Notes: a model not told the origin generated them from the sequence alone. A stretch of 64,000 nucleotides of DNA from an uncultured Bacilli bacterium (GCA_944327365.1 CALVHI010000001.1:300-64299), one strand, 5' to 3'; shown: positions 7,404 through 63,465, numbered from the stretch's first letter. Translations and numbers: made by a program.

Positions 7404-7418
7404 TTAAAGGTGGTATAA

Positions 7419-8440: not shown

Positions 8441-8455
8441 AAAGAAGGAATAAAT

Positions 8456-9448
8456 ATGAACGTTATTGTCTCAAATAAATACCAAAACATGTTAGCAACA
8501 CTAGATATAGATGTCATAAAAAGCATTAATGGCGAATTTGAAGCGGAAGAATTAGCAAGTATTTTTACTAACTTCTATTTTAATAAAATGATTATTGATA
8601 TTACGGCGATTAAAGGATATCAAAATATTAAAAACATTCAAAAACTATCAGTAAACTTTGATCCAAGTAAATTAATTCTATTATTAGACGATTCGGCTAT
8701 GGTAAACAGTGGTAGTTATTTATCCGGATTAGTATCAATGGGGATATATAATTTTACTAGAAATATTAACGCTGTAAAATTCTTAATAGATAATCCAAAC
8801 TCATATAAAGATGTAGCTCAATATCATAATCTAAACAATAGTGATGATAAAGTAATAGAATACGATTCATTTACAGGAACAGGAAGTGGAGGGCTTAGAA
8901 TTTTAGGTGTAAAAAATGTTACATCTCATGCAGGCTCAACTACTTTAGTATACATGTTAAAGCGCCATCTAGAAGTAGCATATAATGTTGTAGCCTTAGA
9001 AGTAGATAAAGAAGATTTTAAATATTTAAACGATAAAAGCTTAAAATCAACAACATCACTTGATTTATCTTTTAATATTGCCAATAATCCTGATGCTGAA
9101 GTAATTCTTATAGATTTAAATGATTCAAATCAAGAAAATTTATGCAATGATATTATTTATTTAATTGAACCAGGTTTAATTAAGTTAAACAAAATAATTC
9201 GTCAAGATCGAGATATTTTTGAAAAGCTAAAAGATAAAAAAGTAGTTTTAAACAAAAGTGTTTTAACAAACAAAGATATCAATGATTTTGAGCATGAAGC
9301 TAACACGAAAGTATTTTTTAATATTCCATATTTAGATGATAAAAAAGAGCACGAACAAATCTTAGATGATTTTTTAGTAGCGCTAGGTTTTTCAAGATTA
9401 AACAGCAGTAGTTCTGGAAAAGCTAAATTATTTAACATATTTAAGTAG
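8456..9448 (+). CDS. Degenerate ParA/MinD-like protein (TadZ/CpaE-like, deviant Walker A)
   Basis: ILGVKNVTSHAGSTTLVYMLKRHLEVAYNVVALEVD aligns to MinD VTSGKGGVGKTT...VVIDFD, with the lysine and glycines lost. AEVILIDLND is Walker-B-like. N-terminal ~130 aa are receiver-like. Confidence 0.4.
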   Translation: MNVIVSNKYQNMLATLDIDVIKSINGEFEAEELASIFTNFYFNKMIIDITAIKGYQNIKNIQKLSVNFDPSKLILLLDDSAMVNSGSYLSGLVSMGIYNFTRNINAVKFLIDNPNSYKDVAQYHNLNNSDDKVIEYDSFTGTGSGGLRILGVKNVTSHAGSTTLVYMLKRHLEVAYNVVALEVDKEDFKYLNDKSLKSTTSLDLSFNIANNPDAEVILIDLNDSNQENLCNDIIYLIEPGLIKLNKIIRQDRDIFEKLKDKKVVLNKSVLTNKDINDFEHEANTKVFFNIPYLDDKKEHEQILDDFLVALGFSRLNSSSSGKAKLFNIFK

Positions 9449-9520
9449 TTACTTAATAAAAGTAGCTATTTTTTGTTTTAAAAAGCCTTTGTAGCTGATA
9501 TAATAATATATAAGTGAGGA

Positions 9521-10234
9521 ATGCCTATGAAAATAATCAGTTCAATTCTATTAGTAATATCATCAATTGCTATCATCTTTATAACATCTTATACATTAAT
9601 GCATCAAAAAATAAAAGACACTCAAACAGTAATTAAAATAAAAAGTATTGAGAAAGCTACAAGTAATATGACTACAAATGAATTAAGTGAAACATTCAAT
9701 ATTAATTTAAATGGAAAAAGGCATAGGTTAAAAAATGTTTATAGTTATAATGAAAACACTTTAACACTAACTTTATATTTAGATGGCTTTAAAATATTAA
9801 ATAAAATATTAGAAGAAGAACTAAAGGAAAATAGTATAGAAGAAATATTTAATGAAAAAACATTAAGTTATCCAATAATTGATGAAGAAGATCTTGTTGT
9901 ATTAAAAACTGATAAAAATTATTTATTAGTTAAAATTAGTTCAAATATCCAGAACTTAAAAGAAGAATATTTTGTTTGGAATGATGAAAGAAAAAAAATA
10001 TTAGAAAATATATTAGTTTATGATCAAACTAAGCAATATAAAACAGAAGAAAACATCTTTTATGATAAAGAAAAACAAATATTATCTAAAGTAGAAGATA
10101 ATAAAATATATGTTTTAGAAGAACAAGAAGAAAATGTTTTAGAAGAATATGTATATGAAGTAAAAAAAGATAAAGCAACGAAAGAACTAATCAATACTTA
10201 TATTTTACAAGAAAAAAAGCCCCAAAAGGGCTAA
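9521..10234 (+). CDS. Membrane-anchored K/E-rich hypothetical protein
   Basis: N-terminal TM segment, then a charged low-complexity ectodomain. Last gene of the pilin-like cluster. Confidence 0.4.
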   Translation: MPMKIISSILLVISSIAIIFITSYTLMHQKIKDTQTVIKIKSIEKATSNMTTNELSETFNINLNGKRHRLKNVYSYNENTLTLTLYLDGFKILNKILEEELKENSIEEIFNEKTLSYPIIDEEDLVVLKTDKNYLLVKISSNIQNLKEEYFVWNDERKKILENILVYDQTKQYKTEENIFYDKEKQILSKVEDNKIYVLEEQEENVLEEYVYEVKKDKATKELINTYILQEKKPQKG

Positions 10235-21371: not shown

Positions 21372-21398
21372 ACCCAAGTTATTCAAAATACTTGGGAT
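21372..21398. terminator. Bidirectional hairpin between convergent yneF and the XRE gene
   Basis: CCCAAGT tattcaaaat ACTTGGG. Confidence 0.35.
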
Positions 21399-21834
21399 TA
21401 TCTATTTTACCTAAAAGATAGTCAGCAGATATATGATATTTTTTACAAATAGTATAAAGAAAAGGGGTAGCAATAATGGCACGATTACTTTCATAATTGC
21501 CTATTGTTCCCTTAGAAACGTTTAATAATGTTGCTAATTTTTCCTGAGATAGTTTATTTTCTTTCCTAAATTCTTTTAATCTAGCTTTAACAATATTAAG
21601 ATCAATATCCTGATCTACATTTTGATATTGTTTCGTATCTGTTAAACCAAAAATATAATCAAGAGAAACATGAAAATAACTACATAAAAGATTTAAATGC
21701 TTGATAGGAATTATAGTATATTCTTTCTCAAAGTGATTAAAAGTTTGTTTGGTTACCCCAATAATTTGGCCTAACTGCTCCTGCGTTAAGCCATTTCTTT
21801 CTCTTAATGATCTAAGCTGTTTTCCATACATCAT
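21379..21834 (-). CDS. Double-HTH XRE family transcriptional regulator (module A)
   Basis: Two HTH_XRE domains (LTQEQLGQIIGVTKQTFNHFE; LSQEKLATLLNVSKGTIGNYE). Divergent from the downstream surface-protein gene. Confidence 0.8.
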   Translation of the reverse strand: MMYGKQLRSLRERNGLTQEQLGQIIGVTKQTFNHFEKEYTIIPIKHLNLLCSYFHVSLDYIFGLTDTKQYQNVDQDIDLNIVKARLKEFRKENKLSQEKLATLLNVSKGTIGNYESNRAIIATPFLYTICKKYHISADYLLGKIDNPKYFE

Positions 21835-21907
21835 TATATCACCTAAAACAATTTTCTCATACCCAATTTATTATTTTGCAATTAGTATCCTAATAATGAG
21901 AATTTTC

Positions 21908-21976
21908 TTGACTTTTTATCTAGCCCAATTTATAATTTAAATATAAGCTAGGAAACTCATCTATCATAGCTTATAT
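21908..21976 (+). promoter_or_regulatory. Consensus sigma-A promoter (TTGACT-17-TATAAT) plus a 10-bp perfect inverted repeat in the 5'UTR of paralog A
   Basis: TTGACT 21908-21913. TATAAT 21931-21936. ATATAAGCTA (21941-21950) / TAGCTTATAT (21967-21976). The same block recurs upstream of paralog C. Confidence 0.55.
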
Positions 21977-22023
21977 TTACACCTAAATGAATGAAGGTGT
22001 ACTTCACAGAAATGAGGTAAGTT

Positions 22024-23325
22024 ATGAAGTTCGAAGTATTAAAAAGAAGTCATTTAAAAAGAAATATTATCATAGGATTATTTGCAGTTGCTATCATATC
22101 AGCCACTGTTCTTAATTTTACTCAAGCTAAATACAGAGTAACAGAAAGTATACCCCTCATAAATGGAACTATCCATTATACCCCCTATGATTTAAACTTA
22201 GTAGCTATGTATCAACAAGATGAGACAGGTGAATATATAAGCATAGATACAGTACCAACAAGTGGATACACACTAAATGAGAGTGAAAGTTATTGTGAAA
22301 TAAATGATACAAAAGATAATACCATAACGATAGAATATCAAGATGGGAAAGTTAATTTTTTAGGTTTAATGAAAAAGGGAACGAAATGTTATTTATACTT
22401 TGATGAATATCAAGCTAAAGATATAATTCTAGCAGGAAAAGACATTAAAGAAAGAACTAGCTTTAATAGTGTACTTACAACCAATACAAATGGAATAATT
22501 TATCAAGAAGAAACAAGTGATGGAACAACTTATTACTTTGCCGGAGATACAGATGAAAACTGGGTATCTTTTGCTGGATATTATTGGCGAATCATAAGGG
22601 TAAATGAAGATGGATCAATAAGAATAATCTATAATGGAACAAGTACTAGTACAACCGGAAGTGGAACCCAACTACAGACAAGCGCATTCAATAGTTCGCG
22701 TGATAATAACGCCTATGTAGGATACATGTATACATTAAATAATGTCCATGGAACAGGAACAAGTAGTACAATCAAAGGAATACTAGATAATTTCTATAAA
22801 GATCATATCGCTGGAGAATATGAAGATTATATTAGTAAAGAAGCAGGATTCTGTGGAGATAGAACAAGAAGTACAAGTAGTAGTTCACTCAATAATTCAG
22901 GAGGAACGGGAACAACGGTAACCTATTATGGAGCATATATCAGATTAGCAAATAGTTCCAAAAATCCAACGTTTGAATGTAGTGATGAAGCATATGACTT
23001 GTATACCGTACAAGAAAGCAGTAAAGGGAATCATGCCTTAACGTATCCAATCGGCCTCATCACAGCCGATGAAGTAGCTTATGCCGGAGGAGTATGGGCC
23101 ACTAGCAATAGTAGTTATTACCTCTATAATGGAGAGTATTACTGGACCATGTCTCCGAATTACTTTGTTGACAATAGCGCTTGGATGTTGTCTGTGGATT
23201 CGGATGGCAATCTCCGCATCAACTACGCGGATCGCTCGAATGGCGTCCGCCCAGTATTAAATCTGGATGCTGGTGTAACAATAAAATCAGGAAATGGCAC
23301 AGCAGATTCTCCATTTGTAGTCTGA
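22024..23325 (+). CDS. Signal-anchored mosaic surface/secreted protein, paralog A (unknown family)
   Basis: N-terminus MKFEVLKRSHLKRNIIIGLFAVAIIS. Variable block about aa 55-135. Conserved blocks ILAGKDI.ERT.F...DGTTYYFAGDTDENWVSFAGYYW.IIR.NEDGS, GFCGDRT, TFEC, GLITADEV.YAGG, YWT.SP, GVRPVLNLDAGVT. Three paralogs in the window. Confidence 0.7.
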   Translation: MKFEVLKRSHLKRNIIIGLFAVAIISATVLNFTQAKYRVTESIPLINGTIHYTPYDLNLVAMYQQDETGEYISIDTVPTSGYTLNESESYCEINDTKDNTITIEYQDGKVNFLGLMKKGTKCYLYFDEYQAKDIILAGKDIKERTSFNSVLTTNTNGIIYQEETSDGTTYYFAGDTDENWVSFAGYYWRIIRVNEDGSIRIIYNGTSTSTTGSGTQLQTSAFNSSRDNNAYVGYMYTLNNVHGTGTSSTIKGILDNFYKDHIAGEYEDYISKEAGFCGDRTRSTSSSSLNNSGGTGTTVTYYGAYIRLANSSKNPTFECSDEAYDLYTVQESSKGNHALTYPIGLITADEVAYAGGVWATSNSSYYLYNGEYYWTMSPNYFVDNSAWMLSVDSDGNLRINYADRSNGVRPVLNLDAGVTIKSGNGTADSPFVV

Positions 23326-39360: not shown

Positions 39361-39409
39361 ATCTTAATAGTTTTAAAAAATTGTGGTATTATTATAATAG
39401 GTGGTAATT

Positions 39410-40135
39410 ATGTTTATTGGTGAAAATCCCATTCATATTGAAGCAAGTGCTGATATAGCGCCAGTTGTATTAATGCCAGGAGATCCTCTAAGAGCCAAAT
39501 ATATAGCAGATACTTTCTTAAAAGATGCAAAATTAGTTACTAATATCCGAAATATGTCAGGATATACTGGTGAATATAAGGGGAATAAAGTAACTGTAAT
39601 GGCCCATGGCATGGGTATGCCTAGTGCTAGTATCTATGTTTTTGAACTAATTCATTTCTTTCATGTAAAAAAAATTATTAGAATTGGGACATGTGGTGCG
39701 GTTAGTGACAAGTGCAAAGTAGGGGATGTTATTTTAACGCAAAATATTTATTCTGAATCTAATTTTGCCTATACTTATAATAATTATGTTGGCAATGTAG
39801 TTGATGCAAGTGCTTCTTTAAATAAAACTATTTTAGATACTGCAAGAGAATTAAATGTTGATGTACACTATGGTATGACAACTACTATGGATGTATATGG
39901 CCCATATATTGATTATGAAAGAGTCCTAAATCGCATTCCAAGTGACTATGAGATTCTAGGGGAAGAAATGGAAGGATTTGGTGTATGTCATGTTGCAAAT
40001 ACTATGAATATAGAAGCAACGACTCTAATGACTGTAGCAGACTCTAAATTCTCTAAAATAGTTTTAACTCCAGAAGAAAGACAAACAAAATTAAATGATA
40101 TGATTAAATTAGGTTTAGAAGCTATTATCAAATAA
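39410..40135 (+). CDS. deoD: Purine nucleoside phosphorylase DeoD-type
   Basis: VVLMPGDPLRAKYIA.TFL...KKIIRIGTCGA closely matches DeoD. ATG 39410 after AGGTGG. Confidence 0.85.
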   Translation: MFIGENPIHIEASADIAPVVLMPGDPLRAKYIADTFLKDAKLVTNIRNMSGYTGEYKGNKVTVMAHGMGMPSASIYVFELIHFFHVKKIIRIGTCGAVSDKCKVGDVILTQNIYSESNFAYTYNNYVGNVVDASASLNKTILDTARELNVDVHYGMTTTMDVYGPYIDYERVLNRIPSDYEILGEEMEGFGVCHVANTMNIEATTLMTVADSKFSKIVLTPEERQTKLNDMIKLGLEAIIK

Positions 40136-40214
40136 TAGCAAATGAAATCTAATTCAAATAGACTAATAAATAAAGATTTAACAACTTAAAAGAAGAAAGT
40201 CAATTTTCTTCTTT

Positions 40215-40739
40215 TTATATATTCATTTTTTCTTTAATTTCTTGTACTTTCATTTTAATCTTTTTATCTCTCTTAATATTAGTATCAATATTACCAACAA
40301 TATAATCAGCACTAACACCAAAAGTTTCACATATCTGTTTTAAATCAGCAGTACTAATCATCATTTTCCCAATCTCATAATAACTAATACTACTTCTTTT
40401 TGTATCAATCTTAGAAGCAAACATTTCTTGAGTTAAACCTGCCTTTTTTCTAATCTCTTTTAATCTAAGCCCAATCTTTTTTAAATCCATATTTTCAATA
40501 TAATGATATGAATACTGATCAATAAAATCAATAATTCCTAACAAATAATCAATAGGAACCTGATATAAATAAGCAAGCTTAATAATCTGCCTTAAAGATA
40601 CATTAGTAATTCCATTCTCCCAGTTATTGATTAAACTACGTGATACATGTAGCATTGATGCTAATTCTTGTTGAGTATAACCAAACTTATCTCTTAAATG
40701 ATAAATCCTTTGTTCAATAATTGTTATATTTTTGTCCAT
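40215..40739 (-). CDS. Double-HTH XRE family transcriptional regulator (module B)
   Basis: Two HTH_XRE domains (YTQQELASMLHVSRSLINNWE; LTQEMFASKIDTKRSSISYYE). Divergent from paralog B. Confidence 0.8.
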   Translation of the reverse strand: MDKNITIIEQRIYHLRDKFGYTQQELASMLHVSRSLINNWENGITNVSLRQIIKLAYLYQVPIDYLLGIIDFIDQYSYHYIENMDLKKIGLRLKEIRKKAGLTQEMFASKIDTKRSSISYYEIGKMMISTADLKQICETFGVSADYIVGNIDTNIKRDKKIKMKVQEIKEKMNI

Positions 40740-40997
40740 ACCAACAGCTCACTTTATAAATAAAATCAATAACATTGTTTCATACTATTATAAATCGTAC
40801 TAATAATTGACACTAATACTCACTTAATGACACTAAAAATCACAAAATAGTTGAATTTTATTCAACAATACTGTATACTAGAAATATATCATAGACAAAT
40901 ATATGAGAAATAAAACAAGAAGTTTTGATAAGTTTTGTCGAATCACATGTATTATAAATAAATATATGCTATGATACTCAAGGGAAGAGGGAAGTCT

Positions 40998-42269
40998 ATG
41001 GAATTTGAAGTATTAAAAAGAAGTCATCTAAAAAGAAATATTATCATAGGATTATTTGCAGTTGCTATCATATCAGCCGCTGTTCTTAATTTTACCCAAG
41101 CTAAATACCGAGTAACACAAAGTATACCACTTGTAAACGGAAAAATAAACTATAATCCGGGAGATATTATTATATCTGCTTATTATAATGATGAACTATT
41201 AGCAACATTCCCAACCAAAGATAGTGAATATGCTGTAGAAAACATAACTTGTGATAATAACACAACAGCAACATTTGATAAAGATAAATGGCAAATAAAT
41301 ATAACAAACTTAGTAACAAAAGGAACAAAATGTGATGTGACATTTGTAGAAAAAGAATTAGCAAGTGAATCAATATTAGCCGGAAAAGACATTCAAGAAA
41401 GAACAGATTTTAGTACAACACTTACAACCAATACAAATGGAATAATTTATCAAGAAGATACAAGTGATGGAACAACTTATTACTTTGCCGGAGATACAGA
41501 TGAAAACTGGGTATCCTTTGCTGGATATTACTGGCGAATTATCAGGATTAATGAAGATGGATCAATAAGAATGATCTATAATGGAACAAGTACTAGTGCT
41601 ACCGGAGGTGAAACCCGACTACAGACAAGCTCATTCAATTATTCGAATGGCAATAATGCCTATGCAGGATACATGTGTACTTTAAATAGTGTCCATGGAA
41701 CAGGAACAAGTAGTACAATCAAAGGAATAGTAGATAATTTCTATCGAGATCAAATCGCTGGAGAATATGAAGATTATATTAGTAAAGAAGCAGGATTCTG
41801 TGGAGATAGGACCTCAACAACAACAAATGGTGGGGCACCAAATGATACAGGAGGGATAGGAACAACAACAACTTATTATGGAGCAAGATATCGGTTAGAC
41901 ACAAATAAAACACCAACGTTTGAATGTAGTGATGAAGCAAATGATTTGTATACCGCACAAGAAAGCAGTAAAGGTAATCATGCTTTAACGTATCCAATTG
42001 GACTCATCACAGCCGATGAAGTAGCCTATGCCGGAGGAGTATGGGATACTTATAATAGTAGTTATTACCTATATACCAGACAAAGCTACTGGACTATGTC
42101 TCCGTATAATTATAGCGGTGGTGCTAACGTGTTTCTTGTGTCTCACAATGGCGACCTCGGTAACTGGGGCGTGAGTAACACGGTTGGTGTGCGCCCAGTA
42201 TTAAATCTGGATGCTGGTGTAACACTAACCGGAAGTGGAACAACATCTGACCCTTATAGAGTAAATTAG
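40998..42269 (+). CDS. Signal-anchored mosaic surface/secreted protein, paralog B
   Basis: MEFEVLKRSHLKRNIIIGLFAVAIIS... Same conserved blocks as A and C with a distinct variable block. ATG 40998 after GGGAAGAGGGAAG. Confidence 0.7.
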   Translation: MEFEVLKRSHLKRNIIIGLFAVAIISAAVLNFTQAKYRVTQSIPLVNGKINYNPGDIIISAYYNDELLATFPTKDSEYAVENITCDNNTTATFDKDKWQINITNLVTKGTKCDVTFVEKELASESILAGKDIQERTDFSTTLTTNTNGIIYQEDTSDGTTYYFAGDTDENWVSFAGYYWRIIRINEDGSIRMIYNGTSTSATGGETRLQTSSFNYSNGNNAYAGYMCTLNSVHGTGTSSTIKGIVDNFYRDQIAGEYEDYISKEAGFCGDRTSTTTNGGAPNDTGGIGTTTTYYGARYRLDTNKTPTFECSDEANDLYTAQESSKGNHALTYPIGLITADEVAYAGGVWDTYNSSYYLYTRQSYWTMSPYNYSGGANVFLVSHNGDLGNWGVSNTVGVRPVLNLDAGVTLTGSGTTSDPYRVN

Positions 42270-42307
42270 CACTTATGCTTGACAAGTGCTAATTTTTATT
42301 ATATAAT
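42266..42307 (+). promoter_or_regulatory. CIRCE-like HrcA operator (TTAGCACTT-N9-AAGTGCTAA) overlapping a TTGACA-17-TATAAT promoter upstream of clpB
   Basis: TTAGCACTT 42266-42274, N9, AAGTGCTAA 42284-42292. TTGACA 42279-42284. TATAAT 42302-42307. The palindrome plus T-run could also terminate paralog B. Confidence 0.55.
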
Positions 42308-42336
42308 TATATTCGTAATAGAAAGAAGGTGTTAAT

Positions 42337-44445
42337 ATGTATCCAAATATGGGGGAAGAAAACGAAAATGTTTTGGAAAAATATGGACGCGATATTACTG
42401 AAGCAGTAAGACTTAATAAGGTTGATCCAGTTATTGGTAGAGATGATGAAATACGTAGCATTATTCGTATATTATCAAGAAAAACAAAGAATAATCCCGT
42501 ATTAATTGGTGAACCTGGAGTTGGTAAAACAGCAATTGTTGAAGGACTTGCCATTCGTATTACGAAAGGTGATGTACCAAGTACTTTAAAAGGAAAGAAA
42601 ATATGGTCTCTTGATTTAGGTGCTTTAATTGCAGGTGCTAAATACCGTGGTGAATTTGAAGAGCGTCTAAAAAAAGTTCTAAAAGAAATTAGTGATTCAA
42701 ACGGGGATATCATATTATTTATAGATGAAATACACATGATTGTTGGAGCTGGTGCCGAAGGAGCTATGGATGCTGGTAACATGTTAAAACCAATGCTAGC
42801 CAGAGGAGAAATTAGACTAATTGGTGCTACTACTCTAAACGAATATCGTAAGTATATAGAAACTGATGGAGCTTTAGAGCGTCGTTTACAAAAAATAATG
42901 GTCAAAGAACCAAATGTTGAGGATACTATTACGATATTGCGTGGCTTAAAAGAAAAGTTTGAATTATTTCATAGTGTCAACATCAAAGATAGTGCTTTAA
43001 TTAGTGCAGCAACACTTAGTGATCGGTATATAACGGATCGATACCTACCAGATAAAGCAATTGATTTAGTAGATGAAGCATGTGCTACGATAAAAATGCA
43101 AATGGCATCTGTTCCTACGGAACTAGACACATTAACTCGTAAAATTATGAGTCTAGAAATTGAGCGTGAAGCTATTAAGAAAGAAAAAGATGAACTATCG
43201 AAAGCTCGTAAAGCAGAACTTGACAATGAAATAACAAGTCTAAAAGAGGAAGAAGCCAAAATGCGTTCTAAGTGGGAAGAGGAAAAGAATTTAAATGATG
43301 ATATTAACAAGAAAAAAGAAGAATTAGATAATGCTAAATTTAAACTAGAAACTGCAGAAAATAACTATGATTTAGAAACTGCTGCTCGTCTTCGCCATGG
43401 GGAAATCCCTAAGTTAGAGACTGAACTTGAAGCGCTCCGAAGTAAAATAGATTCACAAATGTTAAGTGATACAGTTACCGAGGAAGATATAGCCAAAATT
43501 GTTGCTAAATGGACGAATATTCCTATTCAAAAATTAGTAAGTGGGGAAAAAGAAAAACTTCTCAGTCTAGAAGCTAACTTAAAAAAGAAAGTAATTGGCC
43601 AAGATGAAGCAGTTAAAGTCGTAAGTGATGCCATTATTAGAGCTAGAAGTGGAATCAAAGACCCGAATAGACCAATCGGATCATTTATATTCATGGGTCC
43701 AACTGGTGTTGGTAAAACCGAACTAGCAAAAGCTTTAGCTTATGAATTATTTGATGATGAACGTCACATGGTAAGAATAGACTGTTCTGAATACATGGAA
43801 GCATTCAATGTATCTAGACTTCTAGGAGCCCCTCCAGGATATGTAGGATATAACGAAGGTGGCGAACTTACAGAAGCCGTAAGAAGAAACCCCTATAGTA
43901 TTGTTTTGTTTGATGAAATCGAAAAAGCTCATCCCGATGTATTTAACATATTACTTCAAATCCTAGATGATGGACGTATTACAGATAGTACAGGAAAACT
44001 AGTAGACTTTAAAAATACAATTATTATAATGACATCAAATTTAGGAAGTGAATATATTCTTGATAATGAAGAAAATAATGAATCTAAAGTAATGAACGCT
44101 TTAAAAGAACATTTCCGTCCAGAATTTATTAATCGTATTGATGAAATAGTAATCTTTAAATCTTTAGGAAAAGAAGTTATTTATAATATTCTTGATAAGA
44201 TTATTCATGAAACGGAATCAAGACTTAAAAATATTAATTTACACTTAGAATTAACTGAAAAAGCAAAAGATTACATCATTGCTCACTCATATGATGAAGC
44301 CTATGGAGCAAGACCAATAAAACGTTATGTAACGCATCATATTGAAACACTTTTAGCAGATAAGATTATTAAAGATGAAATAAAATATAATGACACGCTA
44401 ATTGTTGATGTAAATAATGACCAACTAGAAATAAGTCAGGAATAA
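42337..44445 (+). CDS. clpB: ATP-dependent chaperone ClpB lacking the N-terminal domain (starts at AAA-1)
   Basis: Both AAA modules (GEPGVGKT; GPTGVGKTE), coiled-coil middle domain, C-terminal domain. 702 aa beginning LEKYGRDIT..., so the ~150-aa Clp_N domain is absent. Confidence 0.9.
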
Positions 44446-44605
44446 CCTGGCTTTTTTCATATAAAGCATAAAAAAGTGCTATAATAAATCTTATTTTTAT
44501 TTGCCCTAAATTCAATTATCATAAAAAATTAAACATTTAACCTTTACAAAAAGAGTATAATTTACTATAATGTTATTATCGCAAATAAAAATAGGAGTTG
44601 AAAAA

Positions 44606-45151
44606 ATGACAAAACATTTAAAATGCGAGTTTGATGAATACGTGTGTGATATATTAGAAAATGAATATTTTAAAAGAACAAAAAAAGATTTACATCACGG
44701 AACAAGTAAATACGAGCATTCTTTAAGAGTAGCAAAATTAAGCTATCGTTTAGGGAAAATTTTTAAAGCCGATTTAAGAAGCGTATCAAGGGCAGGCCTT
44801 CTTCATGATTTTTTCTTTGGAACCCGCAAAGATAGTCCTGAAAACTCTTATTTACGTCATCCTGTTACAGCATCTAATAATGCTAAAAAATATTTTCATG
44901 TGACAGATCTAGAAAAAGAAGCTATAAAAACGCATATGTTCCATCATGTCTTAGTAAAAAAGATTTTCCCATTTATTAATCGTAAAGAAAAAGCTAGTAT
45001 TAAAGAATTTAAGCCTAAAAGTAAAGAAGGATGGATTATTTGTTTATCTGATCTATTAGTTTCCTTAGTAGAATGTGAAAGATTCCAATTTACTTATGCT
45101 TTTAATGTAGCAGTCTTATTGGTATTTAATATAATCTTATTTAAAAACTAA
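44606..45151 (+). CDS. HD-domain phosphohydrolase
   Basis: H...HD motif (YEHSLRV...GLLHDFFFG). ATG 44606 after GGAG. Confidence 0.6.
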   Translation: MTKHLKCEFDEYVCDILENEYFKRTKKDLHHGTSKYEHSLRVAKLSYRLGKIFKADLRSVSRAGLLHDFFFGTRKDSPENSYLRHPVTASNNAKKYFHVTDLEKEAIKTHMFHHVLVKKIFPFINRKEKASIKEFKPKSKEGWIICLSDLLVSLVECERFQFTYAFNVAVLLVFNIILFKN

Positions 45152-45193
45152 TTCCGAAAGGAATTTTTTTTTACCAAAAAACTCTCAAGAGAC

Positions 45194-46006
45194 TTATCTA
45201 AAATAAATAAAGATGAATATAGCTAAGAATACACAATAAATACTAAACTTCCATAAATTACCTTTTCGAACAATTTCACTTAACCATTGATAAGAGAAAT
45301 ATGTTACAATACCTGCCACAACCATACCTAAAAGATAAGGCATAAATACAGTACTTAAATTACCTGTTACAACAATATCTTTAACTCCAAGTATCATTGT
45401 TCCAACACTAATAGGAAAGTATAAAATAAATGTATATTTTAAAGCTGTACTTCTACTCATACCTACAAGCAAACATAAAACTAATGTTGTACCACTTCGA
45501 CTAATCCCTGGGAACAATGCAATAATTTGAAATAACCCTACAAAAAAAGCATCTTTTAAAGTAATATCATAATCATTTTTCTTTCCATTCTTATTTTTAA
45601 CAAGTAAAAGCATAAAAGCAGTAAGTAAAAAAGCAAATCCAAGAAGAGTAATATTTTGTAATTTATCTTCAATAATATCTTTAAGAAGCAATCCAGCAAT
45701 CCCGATTGGAATCGTTGAAACAAGAATAAACAAACAATATCGAAACTTCTTCTTATTTTCTTCTCTTGTCTCTTTCTTAAAAAGATAAGTAAAAAAAGCT
45801 TTTAATAAATCCCAAATATCTTTTCTAAAAATAAATAAAATAGCCAAGAAAGATCCAAAATTAGCAACAATCTCAAAATTAAGATCATTAAACATTTCGG
45901 AATTAAAAATGTTTTTAAATAAAAATATATGTCCACTCGATGAGACTGGTATCGGTTCAGTAAACCCTTGAATAATACCTAAAATAATATAAACCAAATA
46001 ATCCAA
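45194..46006 (-). CDS. uppP: Undecaprenyl-diphosphate phosphatase
   Basis: BacA/UppP motifs GISRSGTTLV and SSSGH in an 8-TM protein. Confidence 0.85.
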   Translation of the reverse strand: MDYLVYIILGIIQGFTEPIPVSSSGHIFLFKNIFNSEMFNDLNFEIVANFGSFLAILFIFRKDIWDLLKAFFTYLFKKETREENKKKFRYCLFILVSTIPIGIAGLLLKDIIEDKLQNITLLGFAFLLTAFMLLLVKNKNGKKNDYDITLKDAFFVGLFQIIALFPGISRSGTTLVLCLLVGMSRSTALKYTFILYFPISVGTMILGVKDIVVTGNLSTVFMPYLLGMVVAGIVTYFSYQWLSEIVRKGNLWKFSIYCVFLAIFIFIYFR

Positions 46007-46062
46007 TTTAAATCACCTATTTAATTATATAATATTTTTGGAAATTATGAAATAAAATAATA

Positions 46063-46317
46063 ATGGTGATTATGATGTTTCGCATATTACTTTACATAAT
46101 TGGTGTCATATTAACCAGTTTAGGGCTCTTTTTTATTATAATTTATTTAAATTTATTAACAATGGGGTATAGTTTCTCCTTTTTTGTTAAATTTATAAGT
46201 AGAAGATTAGAAACATGGCTTATATTAATAGGTATACTATGTATTGCTATATCGCTAGAAAGGTGGATAAAAAATGAATTATTATTACGATATAATTCTA
46301 AATTGGAACGAAGATAG
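46063..46317 (+). CDS. Small membrane protein, hypothetical
   Basis: 84-aa ORF with two hydrophobic helices. Confidence 0.3.
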   Translation: MVIMMFRILLYIIGVILTSLGLFFIIIYLNLLTMGYSFSFFVKFISRRLETWLILIGILCIAISLERWIKNELLLRYNSKLERR

Positions 46318-46918
46318 AGCTTATGATTTTTTTGAATGGAATGATACAGATAGTTTAGAACTAATAAAAAAAATCCCTCTAATTAAAGTAAAACATAAAG
46401 TTTTTTTAGATTTAATGACAAATAATATTAAAATAGATCAAGAATTTCTAAAAGAATTAGAAGGAAAAACTTTAATAAGTGCCAAAAAAGATTTACAAAA
46501 GATAGATTATGTGGCTCTATTTACAGACACAAAAAATGTTATAGCAATCGAATTTAATCAAGAAGGAATATCTATAAGTAGAAGTAAACTTTTAATAGAG
46601 GATGAATTAAATGTCTTAGAAGTGTTATATGGCATGAAAGAGCATTTATTTAATTATGAATTGTTAGACTCTATTAAAGAAGATAAAACATTAAGACAAA
46701 TTAAAGATGCCAAGAAGTTAATTACCATTGAAATTAATAATTTATACCAAGAAAAAGAAATAGATAAACTAAAATATTTATACTATGAATATAAAAAAGA
46801 ATATATAGATAATATAGAATATATATATGAAAATATTATGAATGATTTAAATAATGAATTTAATGATAATATTTTAAAACTTTACTATATTATTAAATTA
46901 TCGTATCATAAAGTCTAA
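46274..46918 (+). CDS. Hypothetical protein
   Basis: 214-aa ORF. Confidence 0.4.
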   Translation: MNYYYDIILNWNEDRAYDFFEWNDTDSLELIKKIPLIKVKHKVFLDLMTNNIKIDQEFLKELEGKTLISAKKDLQKIDYVALFTDTKNVIAIEFNQEGISISRSKLLIEDELNVLEVLYGMKEHLFNYELLDSIKEDKTLRQIKDAKKLITIEINNLYQEKEIDKLKYLYYEYKKEYIDNIEYIYENIMNDLNNEFNDNILKLYYIIKLSYHKV

Positions 46919-48434: not shown

Positions 48435-49037
48435 ATGAGAAGTGGTTATAAAATTGCTTTAGGGATTCTTACGATAATGATTTTAGTGACAATTACGATT
48501 GGAACAAGCTATTCTTATTATTCGATAGCAAGTACTCAGGAAAATCCCAATATATTAAATGCAACGTGCTTTGATATAAGCTTTAACGAAGGAAGTAGTT
48601 CTATTAATTTGGGAGCTACTTATCCTATGAGTGATGATAGGGCAAATAGTCTAAGTCCATATACATTTACGCTTACAAATACATGTACAACTGAAAATGC
48701 TACAGATCCTGTTAATTATGTAGTAACTTTAAATACTTTAACAGCGAATATGCCAACGCTTCCATTAAATGTTTTAAAGTATCGTTTAGATACTACCAGC
48801 CCTACATCAACTATGGGAACTAGTACATTATTAAGCAATGCAACAGTATATAATGATTTAAGTGAGACCATAAAAACAAGAGAAGGAATTAATACAAGTT
48901 ACCAATTAATAACTGGCACACTAAATCCAGGAGATTCCGTTACATATAATTTACGTTTATGGATTGATGAAACGGCTACAACTGATATTGAAAACACAAC
49001 ATTTACTGGTCGAGTATTAGTTTATAGCTATATGTAA
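48435..49037 (+). CDS. Signal-anchored secreted protein, family X paralog 1
   Basis: N-terminal TM, then ATYPMSDD, PYTFTLTNTC, LWIDE, FTGRVLVY motifs shared with 51028..52140. Consensus-like promoter TTGAGA-17-TATAAT upstream. Confidence 0.5.
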   Translation: MRSGYKIALGILTIMILVTITIGTSYSYYSIASTQENPNILNATCFDISFNEGSSSINLGATYPMSDDRANSLSPYTFTLTNTCTTENATDPVNYVVTLNTLTANMPTLPLNVLKYRLDTTSPTSTMGTSTLLSNATVYNDLSETIKTREGINTSYQLITGTLNPGDSVTYNLRLWIDETATTDIENTTFTGRVLVYSYM

Positions 49038-49228: not shown

Positions 49229-50566
49229 TTAAAGATTTTCATTAATAAATCTTATATTTGCTTTTCTTATATCAATAGGTGTTAAATATTTTTTAATATT
49301 TAGGATATTCTTTTCACCTAATAATTCTGGTATAAGTTTTATTTCTTTGGGATTAATTTGATAATATCCTAATTTATTTAGTGTTTTATCTGTTAAATAA
49401 CTGTTAATTAAGTCAAAAGGACATTTCCCTTTTAATTCTTCTCTAAATAAACTATTAATATGTGAACATATCGCTTGAAGATCTTCTTCATTATAAATAC
49501 TTAAAGAAACTCCTTGGGGTATAATTCTTCTTAATAATTCATGGTTATTTTCAATGCTACCTTTTTCAAAAGAACTATAAGGATGACAATAATAAATATG
49601 ATCAGTACCTATTCCTTCTATTAATTTTTCTAAATTAATAAATTCTGAGCCATTATCGGTAAGTAATAATTCAATCAATTTATTAAGTTTATCACTTTTT
49701 AATATTTCGTTAAAAGTTTTAAGCTTTTTAACTACTTCATCATTGGTTTGACGATTTATTTTAAAAACGAACAAGAATTTTATTTTAACAATTTGCAAAG
49801 TCAAAAACACAGGTTCATTTGTCCCTTGTATTCCTTGAACACAATCCATTTGCCATTCAATAATATCAGGATTGTTTTTGATTATAACTAAATAATCTTT
49901 GTATGTATGACCTTCTATGTTCCTTTTATAATCTTTATCAATCTCTTGATGTTTTACCTTTCTTCTTGTTCTAGGTAAATCCGAAGATTTAAGTCTTAAT
50001 CTATTATTTTTAATCTGTCTATAAATTGTTTTAATATTAAAATTATAGCCCATAGAATTAATTACACATAACGAATGATAGATAGATTTAGTATTAATAA
50101 CTAAACAATAAAAATCATTGTTTAATATATTCAGTTCCATCTTAGTATAATGAAGATTCGTTCTATTTTTAGACCAATTACTCAGATATTGTGCATTTGC
50201 TTCTTTTGCTCTATAATAATATTTAGCTTTCCTACATTTCTTATTCGGGCAAGAATTACAAACATGTGGGGAAGCTTTTAAATTATCACAAATTTCTAGC
50301 TCAAATCTTTGACAAGTTTTATCACAATCTATGTGTCTATTTCGACATACATCTTTGTGAATACAACATGAAGTTTTACCATAAGAGGAAGGCATTAAAA
50401 TAGTTCTATTTCTTGTTATTTCTCTAGCAATGTTAGAGCGATCTCTATTTAATGCTTTTGCTATATCAGTAATACTAGATCTGTTATTTAGTTCTTCTTC
50501 AATAAAAATTCTTGTTTCTAAAGTGAAATGAGTATTAATTTTTGTTCTTTTCAATTCGATCACCAC
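49229..50566 (-). CDS. IS30 family transposase with Cys-rich insertion
   Basis: N-terminal HTH HFTLETRIFIEEELNNRSSITDIAKALNRDRSNIAREITRN typical of IS30. DDE-type C-terminal region. Extra Cys cluster (CCIHKDVCRNRHIDCDKTCQ...CNSCPNKKC). Confidence 0.8.
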   Translation of the reverse strand: MVIELKRTKINTHFTLETRIFIEEELNNRSSITDIAKALNRDRSNIAREITRNRTILMPSSYGKTSCCIHKDVCRNRHIDCDKTCQRFELEICDNLKASPHVCNSCPNKKCRKAKYYYRAKEANAQYLSNWSKNRTNLHYTKMELNILNNDFYCLVINTKSIYHSLCVINSMGYNFNIKTIYRQIKNNRLRLKSSDLPRTRRKVKHQEIDKDYKRNIEGHTYKDYLVIIKNNPDIIEWQMDCVQGIQGTNEPVFLTLQIVKIKFLFVFKINRQTNDEVVKKLKTFNEILKSDKLNKLIELLLTDNGSEFINLEKLIEGIGTDHIYYCHPYSSFEKGSIENNHELLRRIIPQGVSLSIYNEEDLQAICSHINSLFREELKGKCPFDLINSYLTDKTLNKLGYYQINPKEIKLIPELLGEKNILNIKKYLTPIDIRKANIRFINENL

Positions 50567-51027: not shown

Positions 51028-52140
51028 GTGGTGATAAAATTGAACAACAAAATATATATATCATTATTAATTTCATCAATCATAATTGTAATAATAACAA
51101 CAATTACAATAACATATGCTTATTTATCATATAATGATGCCCAAGAAGGAACAAATACGCTAACAACAAGTTGTTATAATATTATATTTGAAGATGAAGA
51201 ATCAATTAATATAACAAGTTATCCAATGAGTAACGAAACAGCTTTTGAAACTATAACTCCTTATACATTTACAATCAAAAATGATGGATGTAACATAGGA
51301 AGTGGCTATCAAGTAATATTGAATATAGATGAATCAACTTCTGATATTTTATTACCTTATATCAATTTTTCTTTAGATGGAGAAACATCGACCAAACTAA
51401 CCAGTCTTACATCGACAACTTTACCGGTTGGACTAACAGCAACCAACGCCAAAGCTTCTTATGTAATTGAAACAGGAATACTACCTAACATCAATTCCTC
51501 TAAAACTTATAACTTGCATTTATGGATTGATGAGGCAGCTGGAATAGAAGTAATGAATCAAACCTTTAAAGCAGAACTAATCGTCTACAATAAAGCAATA
51601 GAGCCACAGATAGAATTAGTAAACTTAGCAAGTGATCCAAGCTTTACAAGTAGCGGTATTTGGAGTGGTGGTGCAATTGACAATACGCATGTAAAATACG
51701 GAAATACTTCTCTAAAGATGACAGGTGCAAGTGGCCAACCCGAGACTCTAGCAAATAATAGTACTCCGATTAATTTAACGAAAGGTCATATTTATTATTA
51801 TCGTTACGAAGTTTATCATGAAGGAGCCAGTGGTACTGCAGGGTTATATTGGCCTATTGCCGAACCTAGTTTTAGTGATGGTCAATCTATAGGTAATGCT
51901 GGAAGTTGGAATATCATTTCAGCAAGAGATGATCGTTCTGCTTCTAATTTTACTGATGGGCCAAATAATTTTCGCCTAGATTATAACAATAATAATGTAG
52001 CTTCAAGTGTATGGTTTGATGGCTTAGTCTTTCTAGATTTAACCCAAAGTTTTGGCGCTGGAAGTGAACCTTCTAAAGAATGGTGTAATGAAAACATCCT
52101 TTTCTTTGAAGGAACGACTTATATTCCAGTTCCAGACTAA
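51028..52140 (+). CDS. Signal-anchored secreted protein, family X paralog 2 (with C-terminal extension)
   Basis: N-terminal TM. ITSYPMSNE, PYTFTIKNDGC, LWIDE, FKAELIVY shared with 48435..49037. An extra ~170-aa C-terminal domain. Confidence 0.5.
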   Translation: MVIKLNNKIYISLLISSIIIVIITTITITYAYLSYNDAQEGTNTLTTSCYNIIFEDEESINITSYPMSNETAFETITPYTFTIKNDGCNIGSGYQVILNIDESTSDILLPYINFSLDGETSTKLTSLTSTTLPVGLTATNAKASYVIETGILPNINSSKTYNLHLWIDEAAGIEVMNQTFKAELIVYNKAIEPQIELVNLASDPSFTSSGIWSGGAIDNTHVKYGNTSLKMTGASGQPETLANNSTPINLTKGHIYYYRYEVYHEGASGTAGLYWPIAEPSFSDGQSIGNAGSWNIISARDDRSASNFTDGPNNFRLDYNNNNVASSVWFDGLVFLDLTQSFGAGSEPSKEWCNENILFFEGTTYIPVPD

Positions 52141-58682: not shown

Positions 58683-58735
58683 CAAGGTATTTTATGCTAT
58701 AATCTATATGCATATTGAAGTATGTGCATAAATAT

Positions 58736-58842
58736 AAAAAAGCGGTGAATCCAGCCGTATAAATTGGAACTTAAAAAAGCGGTGAATCCAGCCATAAATT
58801 GGAACTTAAAAAAGCGGTGAATCCAGCCATAAATTGGAACTT
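58736..58842 (+). ncRNA. toxI: ToxI/AntiQ-like antitoxin RNA: three tandem 35-37-nt repeats plus a partial fourth
   Basis: AAAAAAGCGGTGAATCCAGCC(GT)ATAAATTGGAACTT x3, at 58736-58772, 58773-58807, 58808-58842. Promoter TTGATT-17-TATAAT at 58675-58703. Terminator and ToxN-family gene immediately downstream. Confidence 0.6.
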
Positions 58843-58853
58843 AAAAAAGTAGG

Positions 58854-58882
58854 TTAGAGACTCAACTCTAATCTTTTCTTTT
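58854..58882 (+). terminator. Rho-independent terminator between antitoxin repeats and toxin gene
   Basis: TTAGAG actcaa CTCTAA followed by TCTTTTCTTTT, as in toxIN loci. Confidence 0.5.
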
Positions 58883-58928
58883 AAGCGCTTTTATTGTATA
58901 ATTATATTAGTTACAAGGGGGAATAGAA

Positions 58929-59438
58929 ATGAGAAATTTTAAAATTGTACGTGTTGATTCAGATTATTGTGATTATTTAAGAAATTTTGATTCAAAAGTA
59001 ATTTATAACAGAGGAGTTAAAATTTTAAGACCATTTATAGGAGTTTTATTTAAAATTGATAAATGGGAATATTTTGCTCCTTTGTCAAGTCCTAAGCCAA
59101 AACATAAATCAATGAGAAACACTATAGACTTTTTTAAAATAAAAAATGGCGAATTAGGAGCAATTAATTTTAATAACATGATTCCTGTTACTAAGGATAA
59201 TTATATTGAAATTGATTTATACACAGAAGCAATAGATTTTAAAGAAAGAAAGTATCAAAAAATGTTAAAGGAACAGTTAGCATGGTTAAATGCTAATAAG
59301 CATCAAATTAAAGATCATTCTTATAAATTATATACAAAATATAAAAATAATAAATTATCATCAAGTATTAGACTTAGATGTTGCAATTATCCACTGTTAG
59401 AAAGTAAAAGCATAGAATTTAATAAAATTCACAATTAG
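58929..59438 (+). CDS. toxN: Type III toxin-antitoxin system toxin, ToxN/AbiQ family endoribonuclease
   Basis: 169 aa; FIGVLFKIDKWEYFAPLSSPKPKH...GAINFNNMIPV...RLRCCNYPLLE matches the ToxN/AbiQ fold family. Preceded by tandem repeats and a terminator. Confidence 0.8.
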   Translation: MRNFKIVRVDSDYCDYLRNFDSKVIYNRGVKILRPFIGVLFKIDKWEYFAPLSSPKPKHKSMRNTIDFFKIKNGELGAINFNNMIPVTKDNYIEIDLYTEAIDFKERKYQKMLKEQLAWLNANKHQIKDHSYKLYTKYKNNKLSSSIRLRCCNYPLLESKSIEFNKIHN

Positions 59439-61514: not shown

Positions 61515-61988
61515 CTATAAATACTTAGGACAATCAATTTTTCCTAAAAGATAATCAGCGCTAACATGATATTTACTACAAATCATATAAAGAAAAGGAG
61601 TACCAATTAAACTTTTACCATTTTCATATATACTCCATGTTGGTTGATCAATATGTAAGAACATAGAAATTTGCTGTTGAGTAAGTTTTTTTTCTTTTCT
61701 AAATTCTTTTAATCTTTTTGAACATAATTCCAAATCAAAGCCTGATTTTACTTGATAAGATTGATTCACAGAGCCAAAAAGGTAATCTATACTTAATTTA
61801 AAATAATCTGCAAATGAAATTAATCTTTTAAGAGGAATAATATTATTATTTGATTCCCACATAGCATAACTACTTCTAGTAACTCCCAATATTTTAGCTA
61901 TATCGTTTTGACTCATACTATTTTGTAATCTTACTTCTTTAATTCTTTTTGTGCTAAACATAATTTTCACCTTTTTAAATTGTCTCAT
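61515..61988 (-). CDS. Double-HTH XRE family transcriptional regulator (module C)
   Basis: Two HTH_XRE domains; C-terminal half closely related to the module A regulator (TPFLYMICSKYHVSADYLLGKID). Confidence 0.8.
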   Translation of the reverse strand: MRQFKKVKIMFSTKRIKEVRLQNSMSQNDIAKILGVTRSSYAMWESNNNIIPLKRLISFADYFKLSIDYLFGSVNQSYQVKSGFDLELCSKRLKEFRKEKKLTQQQISMFLHIDQPTWSIYENGKSLIGTPFLYMICSKYHVSADYLLGKIDCPKYL

Positions 61989-62035
61989 TTATTAAAGAAA
62001 ATAAAAATTATATGTCAGAAATATCTATATTTTTC

Positions 62036-62104
62036 TTGACTTTTTATCTAGCCCAATTTATAATTTAAATATAAGCTAGGAAACTCATCTATCATAGCTT
62101 ATAT
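62036..62104 (+). promoter_or_regulatory. Consensus promoter TTGACT-17-TATAAT plus 10-bp inverted repeat, duplicate of the module A control region
   Basis: TTGACT 62036-62041. TATAAT 62059-62064. ATATAAGCTA 62069-62078 / TAGCTTATAT 62095-62104. About 125 bp nearly identical to 21901-22023. Confidence 0.55.
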
Positions 62105-62151
62105 TTACACCTAAATAAATGAAGGTGTACTTCACAGAAAAGAGGTAAGTT

Positions 62152-63465
62152 ATGAAATTTGAAGTATTAAAAAGAAGTCATTTAAAAAGAAATATTATTA
62201 TAGGAGTATTTGCAGTATTCATAATAAGTGCATGTATATTAAACTTTACTCAAGCTAAATATAGAGTAACAGAAAGTATACCCCTCATAAATGGAACCAT
62301 CCATTATACCCCCTATGATTTAAACTTAGTAGCTATGTATCAGCAAGATGAGGCAGGTGAATATGTTGAGATAGAACAAATGCCTAGTAGTGGTTATACT
62401 ATCAATACAGAAGAAAGTTATTGTACTGTAGATGGCAATAAAGATAATACAATAAGCTTATATACAAACGAAAACGGAGAACATGTTATAGCCAAATTAA
62501 AGAAGGGAAGTAAGTGCTATTTATATTTTGATAAATGTCAAGCTAAAGATGTAATCCTAGCAGGAAAAGACATTCAAAAAAGGACAGATTTTAGTACGGT
62601 ATTAACAACAAATACTGATGGAATAATTTATCAAGAAGAAACAAGTGATGGAACAACTTATTACTTTGCCGGAGATACAGATGAAAATTGGGTATCCTTT
62701 GCCGGCTATTATTGGCAAATCATCAGAATTAATGAAGATGAAAGCGTTCGTTTAATTTATGCAGGCACAAGCCCTTCAATGGGCAATACAGATGACCAAA
62801 TAAGTGCAAGTGCATTCAATAATACAGTTAGCGACAATGCACATATAGGATATATGTTTGGAAGTTTGAATGCGTCAAACTATAATTTGACGCATTCAAA
62901 CATAAATAGTAGTACTATAAAAGCCGTTATAGATAATTGGTATCAAAAAAATATATTAAATGCAAACTATGATCGGTATATTAATACCGAAGCAGGATTC
63001 TGTGGGGATAGAACTCCATACGTTTATAGGTCTGGGCTTTATATATCAGGAGGAGGTACTGGAACAATAGCGACCTATTATGGAGCCTTTGTAAGATTAA
63101 ATATAAATAAAATCCCAACGTTTGAATGTAACAGTAGCAATGACTTGTATACAGTAGATGAAAGTAGTAAAGGATTAACCTATCCAGTCGGACTCATCAC
63201 AGCAGACGAGGTGGTTTATGCGGGGGGAACGTACAAACAAACTAATAATAGTTTTTATCTTAACACAGATAGTACATATTGGACTTTATCACCGTTTGAA
63301 TACGATGGAGACAGTTCCAGAATATTTTATGTGTCAGAAGGATACTTAAACGATTGGCATGGCTCTTATGATGCTTTTGGCGTCCGTCCGGTTATAAACC
63401 TGGATGCTGGTGTAACAATAAAATCTGGAAATGGCACAGCAAATTCACCTTATAAAATATCTTGA
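62152..63465 (+). CDS. Signal-anchored mosaic surface/secreted protein, paralog C
   Basis: First ~65 codons almost identical at DNA level to paralog A. Distinct variable block. Conserved C-terminal blocks through GVRPVINLDAGVTIKSGNGTA. Confidence 0.7.
   Translation: MKFEVLKRSHLKRNIIIGVFAVFIISACILNFTQAKYRVTESIPLINGTIHYTPYDLNLVAMYQQDEAGEYVEIEQMPSSGYTINTEESYCTVDGNKDNTISLYTNENGEHVIAKLKKGSKCYLYFDKCQAKDVILAGKDIQKRTDFSTVLTTNTDGIIYQEETSDGTTYYFAGDTDENWVSFAGYYWQIIRINEDESVRLIYAGTSPSMGNTDDQISASAFNNTVSDNAHIGYMFGSLNASNYNLTHSNINSSTIKAVIDNWYQKNILNANYDRYINTEAGFCGDRTPYVYRSGLYISGGGTGTIATYYGAFVRLNINKIPTFECNSSNDLYTVDESSKGLTYPVGLITADEVVYAGGTYKQTNNSFYLNTDSTYWTLSPFEYDGDSSRIFYVSEGYLNDWHGSYDAFGVRPVINLDAGVTIKSGNGTANSPYKIS

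Follow-up and report, generated by a model that had tools for sequence, protein, structure and literature searches.

A CIRCE-type inverted repeat overlapping the -35 box in front of clpB: a candidate HrcA-controlled promoter in an uncultured gut Bacilli bacterium

In a 64-kb stretch of DNA from an uncultured Bacilli bacterium, which was analysed as a whole and is called the window in the following, an inverted repeat resembling the HrcA operator CIRCE is found in front of clpB. This raises the question whether the repeat places the chaperone gene under HrcA control and, if so, how operator and promoter are fitted together. For Mollicutes, the literature already describes a CIRCE consensus with a T/A innermost pair as well as control of clpB through a CIRCE (PMC12597100, PMC4245973). 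In M. feriruminatoris, TTAGCACTT-N9-AAGTGCTAA stands before clpB and lon, upstream of the Pribnow box, and serves as a heat switch (PMC12597100). A CIRCE likewise precedes the promoters of clpB, dnaK, lon and dnaJ in M. gallisepticum (PMC4245973) and is found at dnaK, clpB and lon of S. melliferum, and the HrcA promoters of A. laidlawii are heat-induced about 100-fold (both PMC5138195). Judged from its sequence, we propose that the site in the window combines an HrcA CIRCE operator with a strong promoter of the sigma-A type, which would drive a monocistronic clpB, a reading to which we assign a probability of roughly 0.85.

Architecture of the clpB promoter region and its host

The features of the locus are summarized in Table 1. 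The palindrome occupies positions 42266-42292, and both the coordinates and the sequence given for it in the initial annotation were confirmed. It is the single CIRCE-like match in the window at up to two mismatches (expected 0.02) and again the sole match when up to three mismatches are allowed with the inner positions set to Y/R (expected 0.12). A second CIRCE was found neither in the window nor in about 20 kb of flanking sequence. The two arms, which form a perfect dyad around a 9-nt spacer, share 16 of 18 positions with the classical CIRCE consensus (TTAGCACTC/GAGTGCTAA) and all 18 with the consensus published for Mollicutes (PMC12597100).

The palindrome overlaps the -35 box of the sole strong promoter before clpB, a heat-shock chaperone gene. 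A TTGACA composed of spacer and right arm, placed 17 nt from a TATAAT, had already been pointed out in the initial annotation, and this holds at 12 of 12 hexamer positions; no other such match occurs in a scan of positions 40000-46500, in which TTGACA-N17-TATAAT also ranks first among the promoter-like sites. A search of the same interval for structured RNA gave no match to an Rfam family. Transcription is predicted to start near 42314-42315, giving a leader of about 22 nt, and because the start is placed there, the clpB leader would be free of the CIRCE.

Table 1. Features of the clpB locus; positions are counted from the first nucleotide of the window.
Feature	Position	Strand	Remarks
PNP-family gene	39401-40135		lies before the double-HTH gene
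Double-HTH regulator gene, XRE-type	40215-40739		1.5 kb upstream of clpB
Upstream ORF ("paralog B")	40971-42269	+	weak DUF6273 C-terminal match; co-directional with clpB
CIRCE left arm TTAGCACTT	42266-42274		read from sequence; kept in orthologous clpB promoters, one species with TTAGCACTC
CIRCE N9 spacer ATGCTTGAC	42275-42283		first 4 nt free; last 5 nt (TTGAC) begin the -35 hexamer
-35 hexamer TTGACA of the clpB promoter	42279-42284	+	inside the operator; last 5 spacer bases plus right-arm A
CIRCE right arm AAGTGCTAA	42284-42292		its A at the first position completes the -35 hexamer
TTTTT run	42293-42297	+	directly 3' of the hairpin; part of the -35/-10 spacer, putative U-tract for the upstream gene
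-10 hexamer TATAAT	42302-42307	+	17-nt spacer from TTGACA; ends 29 nt before ATG
RBS GAAAGAAGGTG, purine-rich	42321-42331	+	about 7 nt before ATG; identical in all orthologues
clpB, 702 aa	42337-44445	+	AAA, AAA_lid_9, AAA_2, ClpB_D2-small (Pfam); two AAA+ modules, without N-terminal domain
Hairpin with T-run, terminator-like	44433-44463	+	end of clpB (terminator scan)

The best match of the clpB product is the ClpB equivalog TIGR03346, which is covered from profile position 149 to 852 of 853 with a score of 1112 bits. This score falls below the cut-off of 1232 bits, likely because the N-domain (profile positions 1-148) is missing. A coiled-coil middle domain of about 125 aa (residues ~255-380) can be read from the translation. 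In view of the terminator-like hairpin at its end, clpB is taken to be monocistronic. On the other side, the TAG stop of the upstream ORF, at 42267-42269, lies within the left arm of the CIRCE.

The window has a G+C content of 28%, and TGA serves as stop in 10 of its 37 long ORFs, which therefore are read with genetic code 11. FtsW/RodA, LytR-Cps2A-Psr and BacA/UppP proteins are encoded according to Pfam, along with a MurD-like ligase recognized by reading of the translation, and these genes point to a cell wall. Many gut-metagenome proteins share 92-94% identity with the ClpB protein; one of them is named Candidatus Caccenecus avistercoris, an organism placed by NCBI in Bacilli incertae sedis. 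We therefore place the host close to Candidatus Caccenecus, as a walled gut Bacilli MAG that uses code 11; it is a relative of uncultured "Tenericutes-like" gut Bacilli and no mycoplasma. A lineage hint towards Mollicutes, drawn initially from the operator, thus does not stand, as the MurD, FtsW and UppP genes and the TGA stops are those of a host that is not a wall-less code-4 organism.

Conservation in clpB orthologues and recurrence before heat-shock genes

For the comparison of clpB orthologues, the set was chosen by protein and not by motif. It comprises the contigs of three ClpB homologues with seven loci (L131-L137), whose upstream regions were compared; locus L010, found by pattern and not by protein, was added. 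The window operator reads TTAGCACTT-ATGC-TTGAC-AAGTGCTAA. The same arms are present in L131 with ATAC as the four free spacer bases (N4), in L132-134 (C. avistercoris, GCA_018716965.1) with ACAC and in L010 with GCAC, and L135-137, which represent one sister species, carry TTAGCACTC-AATA-TTGAC-AAGCGCTAA. Across all these loci TTGAC is invariant while N4 varies. The TTTTT run is identical in all compared loci, and the TATAAT -10 region, the RBS and the start codon are kept as well. Within the arms, the right-arm A is fixed, as the -35 box needs, and the left inner base is either T or C. The site of the sister species is asymmetric and slightly degraded, as its right arm has a mismatch and its inner pair is unequal; selection on the element is therefore not absolute.

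The gene preceding clpB differs between these loci. In L131-134 it is a PNP-family gene, whereas the window shares the paralog gene in this place with L010 and L135-137; in the C. avistercoris-type relatives the double-HTH and paralog genes are missing, and the PNP-family gene precedes the same CIRCE. As the PNP-family gene lies directly before clpB in L131-134, the segment 40215-42269 (double-HTH plus paralog gene) is best explained as an insertion in some species. Operator and promoter have stayed intact across this rearrangement and thus show a clean phylogenetic footprint.

The composite site also recurs far beyond these orthologues. A GTDB scan with one genome per species and the exact arms of the T/A variant listed at least 120 loci. 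Among the matches listed, 85 of 122 T/A sites, the window included, have a spacer that ends in TTGAC on one strand, as compared to about 0.22 expected at such base composition. In every one of these 85 listed composite sites a -10-like hexamer follows 16-18 nt downstream, in 36 cases as perfect TATAAT. Among the matches listed, Pfam assigns the 80 callable downstream ORFs to HSP20 (45), ClpB-type (about 18), HrcA (7), HSP90 (HtpG; 3) and Cpn10 (GroES; 3). In about 80 further genomes, the identical composite site is thus found, nearly always before hsp20, clpB, hrcA, htpG or groES. The source genomes of the listed matches are mostly gut MAGs labelled Bacilli, Tenericutes, Mycoplasma, Erysipelotrichaceae or Clostridia, with a few Arcobacteraceae. 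The MAG CANQYU01, whose ClpB is 83% identical to that of the window, has the site on both clpB (L053) and hsp20 (L081). Moreover, the hrcA operons of related MAGs are preceded by such a site, often with a second CIRCE between the -10 box and the RBS (L030, L099, L127-130); a CIRCE in this place fits the autoregulation to be expected of hrcA.

A scan of metagenomes, in which both inner positions were left free and the embedded TTGAC was required, returned 115 distinct sites. The inner pair is C/G in 74 sites, mostly on contigs with about 32-62% G+C, where the -35 box is TTGACG. It is T/A in 19 sites (contigs with 21-34% G+C), C/A in 16 (mostly 21-34% G+C, with a few contigs at 39-50%), A/A in 5 (24-30% G+C) and G/G in 1. 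The genes downstream encode HSP20 (51) and Clp ATPases (about 20, 17 of them with N-domain) as well as Cpn10, HrcA, ClpP and HSP90. Placement of the -35 box inside the CIRCE is hence a widespread Firmicute design, and hundreds of gut Firmicute genomes have this layout. The canonical-arm version found on mid-GC Firmicute contigs, TTAGCACTC-N4-TTGAC-GAGTGCTAA, resembles the window in the register of the -35 box, in the 16-18 nt to the -10 box and, as for the T/A sites, in its gene set (hsp20, clpB, groES, hrcA, clpP, htpG), but differs in the inner C/G pair, the TTGACG box (5/6), the presence of an N-domain in ClpB and longer leaders. In the initial annotation, CIRCE control of clpB had been regarded as characteristic of Mollicutes and some streptococci. 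Given that the same design stands before full-length clpB or hsp20 in many mid-GC Firmicute contigs, and that a CIRCE before these genes is common in Firmicutes, it is unfit as a lineage marker.

The innermost base pair and the hairpin as a possible terminator

The window differs from the classical operator in its innermost pair, T/A in place of C/G. The right-arm A raises the -35 box from 5/6 to 6/6 in AT-rich lineages. Among the metagenome sites, the left-arm T occurs only alongside the right-arm A (19/40 vs 0/75, p = 5e-11, with kinship ignored). A strictly compensatory exchange, in which the palindrome must be kept, does not hold as a rule; it is contradicted by the sister species with left C and right A, and likewise by the right-arm-A metagenome sites, whose left base is T in 19, C in 16 and A in 5 cases. 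Neither can the embedded -35 box be the sole cause, because the second CIRCE of the hrcA operons has T/A without a -35 box and, among the matches listed, 37 of 122 T/A sites lack the TTGAC. From T/A in CIRCEs without a -35 box, taken together with the M. feriruminatoris consensus (PMC12597100), it follows that a tolerance or preference of HrcA at the level of the lineage contributes too. According to the survey, the T/A variant of the CIRCE is largely a by-product of an operator that overlaps a -35 box.

These observations may be cast into a design rule, which we put forward tentatively and with more doubt than conviction. In many Firmicutes, the -35 box would sit in a fixed register within the CIRCE, formed by N4-TTGAC and the first right-arm base; low-GC lineages would have re-tuned the innermost pair (A in place of G, frequently with T in place of C opposite) to obtain a perfect TTGACA; and a T-run would add a terminator where the upstream gene is co-directional, resulting in a three-in-one cassette. 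If true, the rule would account for the existence of the T/A variant. A limited search of the literature found no explicit description of a -35 box embedded in the CIRCE in a fixed register, and only this register rule and the economy of operator, promoter and terminator might be new.

With regard to the terminator function, the RNA of positions 42245-42305 is predicted to fold into a 12-bp stem (-13.6 kcal/mol, z = -3.15) that is followed by UUUUU. The stem has 9-12 bp with only 3 G-C pairs, and the 9-nt loop is large for an intrinsic terminator. Among the matches listed, at least four T directly follow the right arm in 20 of the 85 composite sites, and 18 of these 20 have a co-directional ORF ending at most 120 nt upstream. 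Hereby, the listed sites show a T-run in 18/53 co-directional cases compared to 2/32 others (p = 0.0035) and in 0/21 cases with a divergent neighbour. The metagenome set gives a borderline result (10/67 co-directional vs 1/40, p = 0.05), and the pooled counts amount to 28/120 co-directional vs 3/72 (p = 4e-4), all based on heuristic ORF calls and non-independent sequences. The proposal of the initial annotation that the upstream gene is terminated here is thus backed by the association of T-run and co-directional genes but not by a simple terminator scan, which did not call the hairpin because its loop of 9 nt exceeds the scan maximum of 8. As the upstream gene is co-directional and ends within the left arm, the palindrome, as RNA and together with the UUUUU, probably also terminates the gene at 40971-42269.

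Proposed HrcA control, competing explanations and known systems

We infer the following course of HrcA binding, heat induction, transcription start and termination at this locus. At normal temperature, an HrcA dimer on the 27-bp inverted repeat would keep RNA polymerase off the -35 box, and clpB would be silent. Since the -35 box lies within the operator, bound HrcA should block the polymerase. In line with this proposal, HrcA footprints of 30-40 bp have been described, from which the authors infer steric interference with RNA polymerase binding (PMC7464140); a footprint of this size would span the whole -35 box and most of the spacer. Upon protein unfolding, HrcA would be inactivated, either by intrinsic heat lability or by titration of a chaperone helper, and the freed consensus promoter would allow strong transcription of clpB from about 42314 with a short leader lacking the CIRCE. 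In this scheme, the inner G-to-A exchange of the right arm would provide the perfect TTGACA, and the C-to-T exchange of the left arm would keep the dyad without being obligatory. The upstream transcript would end in the CIRCE hairpin and UUUUU, and any role of the CIRCE at the RNA level would be limited to the 3' end of this transcript.

The assignment to HrcA, already made in the initial annotation, gains support from the protein-selected orthologues, from the recurrence elsewhere, from the lack of a CtsR box and from the M. feriruminatoris precedent (PMC12597100). The repressor gene itself was sought as well. Among all ORFs of at least 140 aa in the 64-kb window there is no hrcA, dnaK or groEL, and exact-protein look-ups in about 10 kb beyond each window end gave no hrcA; one flank holds prophage genes and the other an unannotated ORF. 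In low-GC Bacilli, HrcA forms at least four clades with 50-60% identity between them. The best 120 matches to the HrcA of L099 (73-99% identical) belong to another clade and include none labelled Caccenecus, ten large HrcA clusters that were opened likewise contained no Caccenecus label, and P0232 was rejected as HrcA of the Caccenecus lineage as it came from other samples.

As the hrcA of the host genome was not located, a small probability remains that the operator is a relic, i.e. that hrcA was lost in the lineage and that the element now does no more than supply a constitutive promoter with its -35 region and perhaps act as a terminator. The missing hrcA in window, flanks and labelled relatives, the right-arm mismatch and asymmetric inner pair of one sister species, and the loss of CIRCE sites reported for S. 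melliferum (PMC5138195) would all agree with such a relic. However, the window and four further species-level variants have kept both 9-bp arms intact next to free bases that vary, the left arm is conserved although it has no promoter role, and every related low-GC Bacilli clade sampled has an hrcA with its own CIRCE. We thus consider the relic improbable. It is more improbable still that the palindrome is merely the intrinsic terminator of the upstream gene with an incidental likeness to the CIRCE. A stable hairpin followed by TTTTT does start where the upstream ORF stops, and T-runs are associated with co-directional upstream genes, but the arms match the CIRCE consensus at 16/18 and the published Mollicute consensus at 18/18 positions, and 65 of the 85 listed sites have no T-run, including those of heat-shock genes with divergent or no upstream neighbours. 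Moreover, a stem would allow compensatory change, yet the arm sequence is fixed across phyla.

An operator of another repressor, be it CtsR, HspR or the adjacent XRE-type double-HTH protein, is an equally faint prospect. clpB-type genes belong to the CtsR regulon in many Firmicutes, and the double-HTH gene (40215-40739) lies 1.5 kb upstream. No CtsR repeat was found near clpB, however, the motif corresponds to the HrcA operator rather than to HAIR, and the clpB site is unchanged in relatives in which the HTH gene and the adjoining paralog gene are missing. Chance formation of the palindrome in AT-rich DNA between genes, for which nothing but the low G+C content of 28% could be adduced, is practically negligible at an expectation of 0.02 per window and is refuted by the conservation and by the recurrence before heat-shock genes. 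HrcA control of clpB hence remains the preferred reading.

With respect to known systems, the Mollicute HrcA/CIRCE pairs (PMC12597100, PMC4245973, PMC5138195) share with the window the operator consensus, a clpB target without N-domain and an operator that precedes the -10 box instead of lying in the leader. There, heat-inducibility was shown by experiment, whereas the window is known from sequence; its host, in contrast to Mollicutes, is walled and uses code 11, and hrcA is not located beside clpB. Most mycoplasma promoters lack a -35 box, whereas the window has a full consensus -35 box within the operator.

In B. subtilis, the CIRCE has an inner C/G pair and lies downstream of the -10 box, around the transcription start and leader, so that it is part of the mRNA; the HrcA regulon classically comprises only the dnaK and groE operons and not clpB. 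Unlike this arrangement, the CIRCE of the window is placed over the -35 box and would be absent from the clpB mRNA. As far as the B. subtilis dnaK/groESL CIRCE of Zuber and Schumann (1994) is related in PMC4245973 and PMC7464140, both have in common the 9-bp repeat and the 9-nt spacer, and the repression of a sigma-A chaperone promoter by an HrcA dimer described there is the same kind of control as proposed here for clpB. For C. jejuni, an HrcA footprint of 30-40 bp over the core promoter, from which steric exclusion was inferred, resembles the situation proposed for the window (PMC7464140, PMC6032397). The CIRCE-like repeats of C. jejuni and Helicobacter pylori are, in contrast to the window, degenerate and centred on the transcription start; HrcA acts there together with HspR, and clpB is under the control of HspR and not of HrcA (PMC7464140, PMC6032397).

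In conclusion, the current understanding of HrcA is left unchanged by this locus, whose architecture is tidy but common. The uncultured Caccenecus-like gut Bacilli lineage would gain a piece of regulatory wiring, in which clpB belongs to the HrcA regulon and is kept off by occlusion of its -35 box. Furthermore, the 70-bp segment represents a compact candidate for a heat-inducible promoter in low-GC Firmicutes, a use that is already known in Mycoplasma (PMC12597100).

Gene pairs and possible mobile elements in the window

Three paralogous genes in the window encode membrane-anchored proteins of ~432-437 amino acids, and each of them is partnered by a divergently transcribed regulator gene with a product of ~150-175 amino acids. 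None of the three membrane-anchored proteins has a match in NCBIfam; a Pfam scan of the middle paralog alone gave a weak DUF6273 match at its C-terminus. Two XRE-type HTH domains are found in the regulators of the middle and third pairs (Pfam). Because relatives of the Candidatus Caccenecus avistercoris type are without the pair before clpB, a PNP-family gene adjoining the CIRCE there, this pair behaves like an inserted module.

The left end of the window (1-2600) and the 10 kb beyond it (L122, a flank extension, 1-10000) resemble a prophage or mobile element, encoding a 2077-aa MuF_C/LPD38 protein, a PBECR-type gene and an M23 peptidase. A 445-aa ORF, possibly a transposase, is flanked by the genes of two secreted or anchored proteins (48435-49037 and 51028-52140), the N-terminal segments of which are alike. 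Ahead of a ToxN-family toxin gene lies a tandem repeat of 35 nt in 3.2 copies (58735-58849, 97% matches); the two (58735-59438) are arranged as in a type III toxin-antitoxin (ToxIN/AbiQ-like) system, in which the antitoxin is an RNA.

Features in the window and in comparison loci (L numbers)
Feature	Location	Strand	Remark
Paralog and regulator, pair 1	window 21379-23325
Paralog and regulator, pair 2	window 40215-42269		middle copy, in front of clpB
Paralog and regulator, pair 3	window 61515-63465
M23 peptidase	window 478-1233		PG_binding_1 domain; prophage-like region
445-aa ORF	window 49229-50566	minus	weak HTH_38 match
ToxN-family toxin gene	window 58929-59438		PF13958 on identical gene in L126 (flank extension)
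hrcA promoter regions	L030 7570-7660; L099 900-980; L127 5905-6000		related MAGs
hsp20 composite sites	L006, L077, L121		Arcobacteraceae genomes
hsp20 composite sites	L144, L164		metagenome contigs, similar Hsp20 N-terminus
CIRCE before clpP	L168, L171, L183, L223		metagenome contigs

CIRCE and embedded -35 elements at other heat-shock genes

The hrcA-grpE-dnaK-dnaJ operons of related MAGs carry two CIRCEs. The first is partly degenerate with an embedded -35, as in TTAGCACTT-AACTA-TTGACT-TTGCTAA, and the second, located 3' of TATAAT and immediately ahead of the RBS, is of the perfect T/A form (innermost bases of left/right arm). In Arcobacteraceae, which belong to the Campylobacterota, hsp20 is preceded by the same composite site as clpB in the window, its arms being of the T/A or A/A form and enclosing TTGACA, so that the design extends beyond the Firmicutes. 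Certain mid-GC Firmicute contigs have a CIRCE with embedded -35 and canonical C/G arms before clpP, an arrangement that would place ClpP under HrcA control in those contigs.
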